Both the position numbers and the translations under genes were made by a program. Source: a virus. From it: 12,595 nt of DNA. The stretch is taken from the UHGV virus genome UHGV-1677753; one strand, given 5' to 3'. The notes below the pieces were generated by a model. That model saw only the letters and a list, made by a program, of their open reading frames with translations, searched no databases and had not been told where the DNA came from. This document shows positions 1-12,536 of this stretch, piece after piece; positions within the stretch are counted from its first letter, which is position 1, and every line of letters begins with the position of its first letter.

Positions 1-70
1 TTTTCAAGCAGAAGACGGCATACGAGATTGTTGACTGTGACTGGAGTTCAGACGTGTGCTCTTCCGATCT
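1..70. other. Synthetic Illumina TruSeq indexed adapter (P7 flow-cell sequence, 8-nt index, Read 2 primer site); not biological sequence
   Basis: Bases 5-28 read CAAGCAGAAGACGGCATACGAGAT and bases 37-70 read GTGACTGGAGTTCAGACGTGTGCTCTTCCGATCT. The 8 nt between them (29-36, TGTTGACT) sit where the index belongs; their reverse complement AGTCAACA matches TruSeq index 13 (AGTCAA) as I recall it. Genome-like sequence starts at 71. Confidence 0.93.
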
Positions 71-119
71 ATACTGTTGGAAAATCAGCTTTTTTGGTTA
101 GCAACTTTTCCAACAGTAT
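71..119. repeat. Perfect 14-bp inverted repeat (ATACTGTTGGAAAA / TTTTCCAACAGTAT) with a 21-nt spacer, immediately abutting the adapter
   Basis: Positions 71-84 are the exact reverse complement of 106-119. It lies inside the minus-strand ORF and begins at the first genomic base after the adapter. Confidence 0.85.
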
Positions 120-263
120 TGACCATTCTTTTTCATTCCCTGCTTGCACAAAACCGATTTTACATGCTCTTGCGTGACTATTGATTAGCTCAGCATCAAC
201 GCCTTTGCCAAAAACGTATCCAACGCCACAATTGGAAGCAGTACAGTTAATCATTTTTATCAT
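71..263 (-). CDS. Hypothetical small Cys-containing protein in an AT-rich segment; 3' end not trustworthy (stop codon spans the adapter junction), so probably C-terminally truncated
   Basis: ORF track 69..263 (-), 64 aa, starting MIKMINCTASNCGVGYVFGKG. The ATG at 263 is preceded on the minus strand by AAGGA with about 7-nt spacing. The TAG stop is the reverse complement of 69-71, i.e. two adapter bases plus one genome base. Composition is markedly AT-rich compared with the phage genes. I recognise no family. Confidence 0.45.
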
Positions 264-430: not shown

Positions 431-781
431 ATTCCGCAACGAACCCCAAAAGCCTGCCGTGTTCGCGGCTGCCGCCATACCACCACTGACCCGTCAGGCT
501 ATTGCGAAAGCCACAAAAGCGAAGGCTGGAAGCAATACAAACCTGGACAATCCCGTCATCAGCGCGGCTACGGTTCGAAGTGGGACAGTATCCGCGCGCG
601 TGTCCTGAAGCGTGACAAAGGCCTGTGTCAGTTATGTCTGCGTTCTGGTGTGGTGCGTGAGGCGAAAACTGTTGACCACATCATCCCTAAAGCGCATGGC
701 GGCACTGATGCTGACAGTAATCTGCAGAGTCTGTGCTGGCCGTGTCATAAGGCGAAGACGGCCCGTGAACGGTTAAAGTGA
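431..781 (+). CDS. HNH endonuclease, terminase-associated; start codon uncertain (no in-frame ATG/GTG/TTG, proposed ATT start at 431)
   Basis: Open frame from the TAA at 410-412 to the TGA at 779-781 translates to ...PKACRVRGCRHTTTDPSGYCESH...VDHIIPKAHGGTDADSNLQSLCWPCHKAKTARERLK, with paired Cys zinc-finger-like motifs and the HNH core (DH...N...CxxCH). It sits directly upstream of the terminase small subunit. Not in the ORF track because there is no canonical start. AGGAGG at 419-424 lies 6 nt upstream of ATT 431. Confidence 0.75.
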   Translation: MPQRTPKACRVRGCRHTTTDPSGYCESHKSEGWKQYKPGQSRHQRGYGSKWDSIRARVLKRDKGLCQLCLRSGVVREAKTVDHIIPKAHGGTDADSNLQSLCWPCHKAKTARERLK

Positions 782-10876: not shown

Positions 10877-12536
10877 ATTTGAGCTTAAGGCGTTGATCAC
10901 CGGTGTCGACAGGCTTTCTCCCGCGCTGTCGAAAATGCAAAAGAAAATCCGGGGATTTAAACGCCAGGCGGAAGAAGCGTCACAGGGTGGGCTGGCGCTT
11001 GGTGGCGGACTGGCAGCGGGTCTGACGCTTTCCCTGAAATCTTATGCCGATCAGGAAAACGCCGCCACCGGGCTGAAAGTTGCCATGATGGATGCGAACG
11101 GTGAGGTCGGAAAGAGCTTTCAGGACATCAATAAACTGGCTATTGGTCTGGGTAACCAGCTACCCGGTACAACGGCTGATTTTCAGAACATGATGCAGAT
11201 GCTGGTGCGTCAGGGGATCCCGGCAGAAAACATTCTTGGCGGTGTGGGTAAAGCGACAGCTTATCTTGCGGTACAACTGAAAAAAACACCGGAAGCGGCT
11301 GCCGAGTTTGCCGCAAAGATGCAGGATGCTACCGGAACGGCGTCAGAAGACATGATGGGGCTGTTCGACACTATCCAGAAGGCGTTTTATCTGGGCGTTG
11401 ACGATACCAACATGTTGTCCTTCTTCACTAAAACCAGTTCTGTTCTGAAGATGGTGAACAAGGACGGTCTTCAGGCTGCACAGAGCCTTGCCCCCATCAG
11501 CGTCATGATGGATCAGATGGGGATGAACGGGGAGTCGGCAGGTAATGCCCTGCGAAAAGTTATCCAGTCCGGATTAAGCGTTAAGAAAATCAGGGACGTT
11601 AATAAAGTTATGGCCCGCCAGAAACTCGGGGTACAGCTCGATTTTACTGACGGCAAAGGGAGTTTTGGCGGTCTTGATAACATGTTTAAGCAACTGGCAA
11701 AGCTGCGAAAATTGACCGACGTTAAGCGAACCGGTGTACTTAAGGCAATATTTGGTGATGATGCCGAAACCCTTCAGGTGGTCAATGCTCTGATCGATAA
11801 AGGAAAGGATGGTTACGATCAGATCCAGCAGAAGATGAATAAACAGGCCAGCCTGAATAAACGTGTTCAGGCACAGCTTGGTACGCTGTCCAACCTGTGG
11901 GAGGCAATGACGGGGACCGCAACTAACGGTCTTGCAGCTATTGGCGGCGCATTTTCTGGTGACGCTAAAAATATCACGCAATGGCTGGGGGAGTTGGGGG
12001 AAAAATTCACGAAGTTTGCGGATGAAAATCCCCGGGTTATTCGCGGCGTCGTCGGGCTTGCTGCCGGTCTTGCGATTCTGAAACTGGGATTGATGGGCGT
12101 GGGCGGTGCCATCAGCATTGTCAGCAGGATCATGTCGATGACGCCGATTGGCATGATTGCGACGGCGATAGCCCTGGCTGCGGGATTAATTATCACTAAC
12201 TGGGATGTTGTCGGACCTTATTTCAAGAAGCTCTGGGAAACCATTGGTCCTTATTTTGAGGCTGGCTGGGAACTCCTTAAGAAAGTTTTTGCCTGGTCGC
12301 CGCTGGGGATGGTGATCAATAACTGGGGGCCGGTTGTTAAGTGGTTTCAGGATATGTGGGACAAGCTGAAGCCAATTATTGAGTGGTTTACCGACAGTTC
12401 CGGTGACACGGTCGATGCCATTAACTCTGCGCAGTGGGGCGCGGGTGCTTATGATGCTTATGGGACGGGAATACCGGCACGGGGATACACTCCTTATCCG
12501 GCGGTGGATCCGGCTCAGTACCGCATAATACGATAA
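10869..12536 (+). CDS. Tail tape measure protein
   Basis: 555-aa ORF immediately after the G/GT chaperone pair. Ala/Gly-rich and largely helical in character, with hydrophobic segments near the C-terminus and periodic Trp/Phe repeats (WDVVGPYFKKL / WETIGPYFEAG). Its start overlaps the GT stop. Confidence 0.85.
   Translation: MAEFELKALITGVDRLSPALSKMQKKIRGFKRQAEEASQGGLALGGGLAAGLTLSLKSYADQENAATGLKVAMMDANGEVGKSFQDINKLAIGLGNQLPGTTADFQNMMQMLVRQGIPAENILGGVGKATAYLAVQLKKTPEAAAEFAAKMQDATGTASEDMMGLFDTIQKAFYLGVDDTNMLSFFTKTSSVLKMVNKDGLQAAQSLAPISVMMDQMGMNGESAGNALRKVIQSGLSVKKIRDVNKVMARQKLGVQLDFTDGKGSFGGLDNMFKQLAKLRKLTDVKRTGVLKAIFGDDAETLQVVNALIDKGKDGYDQIQQKMNKQASLNKRVQAQLGTLSNLWEAMTGTATNGLAAIGGAFSGDAKNITQWLGELGEKFTKFADENPRVIRGVVGLAAGLAILKLGLMGVGGAISIVSRIMSMTPIGMIATAIALAAGLIITNWDVVGPYFKKLWETIGPYFEAGWELLKKVFAWSPLGMVINNWGPVVKWFQDMWDKLKPIIEWFTDSSGDTVDAINSAQWGAGAYDAYGTGIPARGYTPYPAVDPAQYRIIR

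Follow-up and report, generated by a model that had tools for sequence, protein, structure and literature searches.

The window analyzed here, a stretch of 12,595 nt, is an entire metagenome contig (ENA assembly ERZ773425, NODE_1411, k-mer coverage 6.7), both ends of which are contig tips. At its left tip, an Illumina adapter is directly followed by a perfect inverted repeat, which raises the question of whether this palindrome is a genuine hairpin of the sequenced DNA or was formed when the library was made and the reads were assembled. To judge by its name and coverage, the contig comes from a SPAdes-style assembly and represents a low-abundance genome. Between positions 81 and 12519, the window is collinear with complete Escherichia coli prophages (a single BLAST piece, ~98%). 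The locus belongs to an SfV/HK97-like E. coli prophage, of which it spans the packaging-to-tail region, with genes for HNH endonuclease, P27-family small terminase, large terminase, portal, protease, capsid, sheath, tube, and tape measure. The features that bear on the question are the following (window coordinates).

1 to 4, plus strand: TTTT, nonbiological read-through beyond the adapter end, without homology to any E. coli locus
5 to 28, plus strand: Illumina P7 flow-cell sequence CAAGCAGAAGACGGCATACGAGAT (exact string match)
29 to 36, plus strand: 8-nt sample index TGTTGACT, read as AGTCAACA, located between the P7 and read-2 primer strings
37 to 70, plus strand: TruSeq read-2/index primer site GTGACTGGAGTTCAGACGTGTGCTCTTCCGATCT, ending in GATCT (exact string match)
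71 to 80, plus strand: nonnative ATACTGTTGG, a reverse-complement copy of 110 to 119, absent from the matching genomes and contigs and reproduced by simulation
81 to 84, plus strand: junction microhomology AAAA, where the native alignment begins; the breakpoint can lie anywhere within these 4 nt
85 to 105, plus strand: hairpin loop, native 21 nt with 100% identity to the native genomes
106 to 119, plus strand: right arm, native in all genomes; TTTT (106 to 109) pairs with 81 to 84, and CCAACAGTAT (110 to 119) is the putative template of the copy, a role suggested by the simulation
69 to 263, minus strand: shortened open reading frame (ORF) of 64 codons, the translation of which includes residues 1 to 61 of the 112-aa prophage ORFan WP_000594256.1
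12519 to 12595, plus strand: second chimeric tip, 77 nt from inside a SusD/RagB-family gene, joined to the prophage tape-measure gene

Adapter and inverted repeat at the left tip

The first 70 nt of the window consist of TTTT and a complete, untrimmed Illumina TruSeq-type P7 indexed adapter. The sequence-only reading had placed an adapter before the palindrome, and the exact matches of P7 (5 to 28), the index (29 to 36), and the read-2 primer site (37 to 70) confirm this. The adapter is of the ligated TruSeq type, not Nextera, and the final T of the primer site (position 70) is the adapter T-overhang, which pairs with the A-tail of the insert. We take the index TGTTGACT to be TruSeq index 13. 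The TTTT at 1 to 4 is presumably the complement of the poly-T linker of the flow-cell P7 oligonucleotide, appearing as poly-A on the sequenced strand; poly-A past the adapter is typical of four-color Illumina chemistry. The presence of TTTT before P7 would fit a HiSeq or MiSeq run with an insert far shorter than the read. Positions 1 to 80 of the window show no homology to any of the matching E. coli genomes.

Immediately past the adapter, which ends at 70, ATACTGTTGGAAAA (71 to 84) is the exact reverse complement of TTTTCCAACAGTAT (106 to 119), with a 21-nt loop between the arms, in full agreement with the earlier description of a perfect 14-bp inverted repeat at the adapter junction. The repeat is real and well above chance, given that first-order Markov simulations yield an expectation of 0.003 perfect 14-nt inverted repeats with a loop of at most 60 nt per window, that the 10-mer ATACTGTTGG occurs at just two sites in the window (71 to 80 and, as the reverse complement, 110 to 119) with 0.03 expected, and that positions 71 to 119, folded as single-stranded DNA, reach -12.6 kcal/mol (z = -6.0 versus shuffles). 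A search with an 11-nt seed and arms at most 200 nt apart detected no second inverted repeat in the 12,595-nt window; no other repeat of this kind reaches 12 nt.

The native locus and the truncated reading frame

Among 5,426 complete E. coli genomes, 12 match positions 81 to 135 of the window at 100%, and none of these covers 71 to 80: the alignment starts at base 81, never at 71, in all 12. An exact search for the native 32-mer identified four IMG/VR contigs that carry it and are 100% identical to the window from 81 on. The native junction was read directly in six sequences (two genomes and the four IMG/VR contigs) and has the form ...CAGTAAAGACTC|AAAATCAGC, with CTTCTGAATTAACAGTTTCACATACAGTCAGTAAAGACTC directly to the left of AAAATCAGC in all six. 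The native counterpart of the left arm, in all 16 independent copies (the 12 genomes and the four contigs), is GTAAAGACTC, where the window has ATACTGTTGG; it is complementary to the right arm at only 3 of the 10 positions. The native junction sequence, AAAGACTCAAAATCAGC, has its switch point at CTC|AAAA, and the foldback junction in the window, GATCTATACTGTTGGAAAATCAGC, switches at GG|AAAA. In native DNA, ATACTGTTGG occurs solely as the reverse complement, at the site equivalent to 110 to 119. The native 49-mer folds at -1.6 kcal/mol (z = +0.7), no better than shuffles, whereas the 49-mer of the window has the fold of -12.6 kcal/mol (z = -6.0) reported above.

The artifact junction was found in none of the 12 matching E. 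coli genomes and none of the four IMG/VR contigs, and its 32-mer had no exact match in three collections: GTDB (one genome each for 185,579 bacterial and archaeal species), IMG/VR, and metagenome contigs. The native 32-mer had no match in the one-genome-per-species collection either, but this zero is uninformative because the locus is present in just 12 of the 5,426 E. coli genomes. Bases 71 to 80 are absent from all native copies and therefore are not part of the prophage; among the sequences compared, the hairpin exists in this contig alone, the native DNA having none at this site. The comparison with homologous prophages, which had been suggested as a check of the left arm, showed that 71 to 80 is absent in that orientation from the 12 genomes and the four contigs. 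The sequence-only reading favored a foldback chimeric read or an assembly artifact, and this is borne out by native copies that are identical from 81 on and have a nonpalindromic left flank. It suspected the entire arm from 71 to 84; the suspicion was correct for 71 to 80, which is nonnative, and went too far with respect to AAAA at 81 to 84, which is genomic.

The artifact also changes a gene. The native gene WP_000594256.1, on the minus strand, encodes 112 aa (...LLTKKADF-ESLLTVCETVNSEDKK...LLAK); the product predicted from the window is native through residue 61 (...KKADF) and then continues as P-T-V followed by a stop. The D and F codons (81 to 86) are native and correspond to residues 60 and 61, the P, T, and V codons (72 to 80) are foldback sequence, and the stop TAG (69 to 71) takes two bases from the adapter. 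P-T-V and the stop are fictitious, and the real gene runs 51 codons further into DNA that is missing from the contig. The doubt raised earlier about the last ~5 codons (DFPTV) was justified for P, T, and V, which are false along with the stop, and not for D and F; the real loss amounts to 51 C-terminal residues. The 64-aa product is on record from one contig only (ERZ773425 NODE_1411_length_12595_cov_6.715610). Searches of Pfam, PHROGs, PADLOC, and NCBIfam yielded no match for the native 112-aa ORF.

The 112-aa ORFan is encoded on the other strand and is flanked by the Rz/Rz1 lysis cassette (as in NZ_CP158429.1) and the HNH/terminase genes, as is typical of a “moron”; the full gene occupies L001:2845-3183 (minus strand), and its part in the window extends from 81 to 263 (minus strand). 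It is rare, being present in 12 of the 5,426 complete E. coli genomes, compared with more than 1,200 that have the adjacent packaging module. Most genomes are homologous to the window only from ~430 to 440 onward, which represents a mosaic boundary. Just left of this boundary, between the ORFan and the HNH gene, the intergenic DNA is A+T-rich and contains a pentanucleotide run (367 to 399; TTACA ATACA ATACA TTACA TTACA TTACA TTA); the native genomes conserve this run except for one SNP in strain CDF6.

The HNH endonuclease gene (431 to 781, plus strand), located upstream of the small terminase gene, contains no ATG, GTG, or TTG before codon 74; RefSeq assigns the identical gene an ATT start codon, 6 nt past a strong AGGAGG Shine-Dalgarno sequence. 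In the window, the gene is intact and identical to WP_024188390.1; the most similar entry in NCBIfam is the HNH domain of IscB, with a match (E = 4e-12) that falls far short of the cut-off. The genome records of SfII and SfV/SfIV start at the equivalents of window positions 782 and 840, respectively, between the HNH and small terminase genes, and for this reason the cos end of this phage type is probably located within 782 to 900. A G+C-rich inverted repeat, GGGGCGGG (808 to 815) and CCCGCCCC (849 to 856), followed by a T-run (861 to 867), resembles an intrinsic terminator.

Origin of the foldback copy

The 3' tip of the contig is chimeric, too. The homology to E. coli tape-measure genes ends at 12519, where the junction GGCTCAGT|ACCGCATAAT, with a 1-nt overlap (a single T), leads into a 77-nt tail with a GC content of 34%; the tape-measure frame reaches a stop 9 codons past the join. 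The tail has no real match in E. coli, phage, or plasmid collections and is 100% identical to ~97 human-gut metagenome contigs, in which the respective gene encodes a 529-aa lipoprotein (SusD_RagB, PF07980, E = 1e-43) within a genome of 37 to 40% GC. These matches point to a low-GC gut bacterium, apparently of the Bacteroidota type, as the source of the tail. Because the two parts share only a single T, the join stems from a chimeric molecule, and k-mer overlap cannot account for it; this inter-species chimera thus demonstrates that the assembly has chimeric reads at its tips. The length of the tail, 77 nt, suggests a SPAdes edge ending in a shared k = 77 vertex, of which such a tail would be expected. 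The contig is a real prophage segment with one chimeric read stuck to each end.

At the left tip, the two adjoining parts come from opposite strands of one locus, 71 to 80 being the minus strand of 110 to 119 and the sequence from 81 onward being the plus strand. The switch point is at a 4-nt microhomology (AAAA at 81 to 84 and TTTT at 106 to 109), and the adapter, including its T-overhang base, directly abuts the copied end at 71. We simulated the fold-back of a native minus strand that ends at the complement of 81 to 84 and pairs with AAAA opposite 106 to 109, enumerating all sites; pairing of 1 to 4 nt followed by extension of 10 to 13 nt produced window positions 71 to 200 exactly. The feature is a strand-split (foldback) library chimera, an artifact of a known kind that leaves nothing biological to explain: it shows the hallmarks of an adapter-flanked chimera of this type (parts from opposite strands, a microhomology at the switch point, and a junction absent from independent assemblies) and lacks the native origin of both arms that characterizes a genuine hairpin. 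We are accordingly highly confident that the palindrome arose during library preparation, was captured at the tip of a low-coverage metagenome contig, and is not part of the prophage.

The proposed chain of events starts with a minus-sense strand whose 3' end, ...GCTGATTTT-3' (the complement of 81 to 84), would act as the primer, with the 3' TTTT annealing to AAAA of a minus-sense template, 5'-ATACTGTTGGAAAAGTTGC.... A polymerase would then copy 10 nt to the 5' end of the template at 119|120, which could be the 5' end of a strand or the end of an adapter-bearing fragment, and the resulting blunt end would be A-tailed and ligated to the adapter. A read would pass through the insert into the adapter, the adapter would be left untrimmed, and the assembler would append the read to the real prophage path. 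The template could be the same strand folded back, in which case the insert would be a blunt hairpin of 49 nt that could be joined to the prophage path via low-k contigs alone. It could instead be a second, partly single-stranded copy of the locus, which would give an insert of normal length; an exonuclease would trim the unpaired 3' flap, and fill-in would generate exactly the plus strand of the window. If k was 77, the artifact read would have to reach at least base 157 unless lower-k contigs had bridged it; this requirement speaks against the simplest case, a self-hairpin insert of 49 nt, and leaves the two-molecule version unaffected. Two observations weigh against the proposed pairing in general, namely, that four A/T pairs make a very weak primer-template contact and that a nearer AAAAAA tract (the complement of 90 to 95) is equally usable as a pairing site.

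The copying step could have taken place at end repair or, as a jump to an adapter-bearing molecule with its end at 119, in PCR; the sequence fits both. Within the artifact reading, the probable step is end repair, in which T4 or Klenow polymerase would have acted at low temperature. PCR chimeras are a known class, and a template jump after adapter ligation, during PCR or cluster amplification, would involve an incomplete minus-sense product (...GCTGATTTT-3') priming on AAAA of an adapter-bearing molecule of the locus that ends at 119 and then copying CCAACAGTAT and the P7 adapter. Such a jump reproduces the sequence, including the adapter abutting the 10-nt copy, and the length of the copy would simply reflect an ordinary fragment end at 119. 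Nevertheless, we regard it as rather unlikely because priming by just four A/T pairs would be needed at the temperatures of PCR annealing or extension; besides, two library molecules of a genome covered ~7 to 14x would have to meet. Published experiments also favor end repair because strand-split reads nearly vanish when S1 nuclease is used or libraries are made by tagmentation (PMC6344851).

A foldback might instead have been present already in the sampled DNA, and in that case the library fragment would have chanced to end 10 nt beyond the junction. Microhomology-mediated fold-back inversions occur in biology; a double-strand break capped by a hairpin or repaired by fold-back, or a switch of template during replication, could have produced one in a single E. 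coli cell or phage genome. If true, the window would hold a snapshot of microhomology-primed repair or template switching at a prophage break in the human gut. An in vivo origin is very improbable, however. The junction is absent from the 5,426 E. coli genomes and from three large contig collections, the arm stops exactly at the adapter after 10 copied nt, and, at the coverage given for this contig, other fragments should cross a real junction, resulting in arms of up to k-mer length and not in an adapter. An in vivo foldback would also destroy the 112-aa ORF, and the other tip, an unquestionable cross-species chimera, shows the artifact rate of the library. As for the earlier alternative of a genuine native hairpin (a cruciform, a terminator of the minus-strand ORF, or a protein-binding palindrome) that broke the contig by stalling sequencing or assembly, the strong predicted fold of the window sequence and its location at a contig end would agree with it. 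It is refuted, its probability being next to nil, because the native sequences have no hairpin at the site: the left arm is not native (the native copies have GTAAAGACTC, not ATACTGTTGG), and the 49-mer of the native DNA folds like its shuffles. A terminator is further contradicted by the A+T-rich stem and by the location of the site within codons 49 to 61 of the 112-codon native ORF and not past its stop. A phage genome terminus (cos/pac) was considered as well but is not supported, given that the SfII and SfV/SfIV records start at the equivalents of 782 and 840, ~700 nt away from the palindrome.

A pure assembler error, in which a read consisting of the adapter and ATACTGTTGGAAAAGTTGC... was misjoined at AAAATCAGC, would dispense with a chimeric molecule altogether, and an ordinary read-through read of a fragment ending at 119 would indeed contain exactly the adapter followed by ATACTGTTGGAAAA. 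A de Bruijn misjoin is nonetheless rejected, as an extremely improbable event, because the two paths have just 4 nt (AAAA) in common; no de Bruijn assembler is known to work at k of 5 or less, and the minimum default in SPAdes is 21. The 3' chimera, with its 1-nt overlap, also requires a chimeric molecule and not a graph artifact.

Taken as a library chimera, the palindrome is significant for data hygiene alone: an untrimmed adapter and two chimeric reads have become fixed in a deposited metagenome contig. Through gene calling, the foldback has already entered a public protein collection as a 64-aa record with a false P-T-V C-terminus and a stop that is part adapter. Contig tips of this kind yield palindromes and ORF ends that are not real, as well as artificial joins between species. 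Readers could mistake these for regulatory hairpins, new variants of proteins, or horizontal transfer; in this case, the false join brings an E. coli phage tape-measure gene together with a Bacteroidota SusD gene. Whenever a perfect inverted repeat begins right after an adapter, independent assemblies should be checked before any biological reading is attempted.

Comparison with known artifact classes

NCBI VecScreen and FCS-adaptor screen assembled contigs for adapter contamination. The left tip resembles such contamination in that a complete P7 indexed adapter is present at a contig end as untrimmed short-insert read-through. It differs in that an ordinary contaminating adapter abuts native sequence, whereas in the window the two are separated by a 10-nt foldback copy. 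Inverted chimeras were reportedly described in MDA products by Lasken and Stockwell in 2007, the 3' end re-priming on a nearby displaced strand at a short microhomology. The inverted junction at a short microhomology is common to these chimeras and the window; unlike the copy analyzed here, however, MDA chimeras precede fragmentation, so that their arm is set by random shearing, and nothing indicates that MDA was used here.

Closer parallels are found among artifacts of end repair. Inverted-repeat chimeric soft-clipped reads have been found in both sonication and enzymatic libraries, and the PDSM model (BMC Genomics 2024) attributes them to partly single-stranded ends on which an exonuclease and a polymerase act during end repair (PMC10908179). 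As in the PDSM cases, the clipped end in the window is the inverted complement of a nearby sequence, and PDSM pairing between two copies of the locus would account for an insert of normal length (PMC10908179). The difference lies in the substrate: the PDSM cases involve natural near-perfect inverted repeats of at least 8 nt, whereas here only AAAA/TTTT is native (PMC10908179).

Strand-split artifact reads (SSARs) were described by Haile et al. (Nucleic Acids Res 2019) in FFPE human DNA, at the level of reads; single-stranded DNA anneals via short complementary sequences, T4 DNA polymerase fills in at end repair, and short complementary regions were present in 100% of the strand-split reads examined (PMC6344851). 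Unlike these SSARs, the case in the window comes from a gut metagenome, is fixed in a deposited contig and known from that contig alone, and involves pairing of only 4 nt. Like them, it combines parts on opposite strands, tens of nucleotides apart, at a complementary junction, next to a TruSeq ligation-type adapter (PMC6344851).
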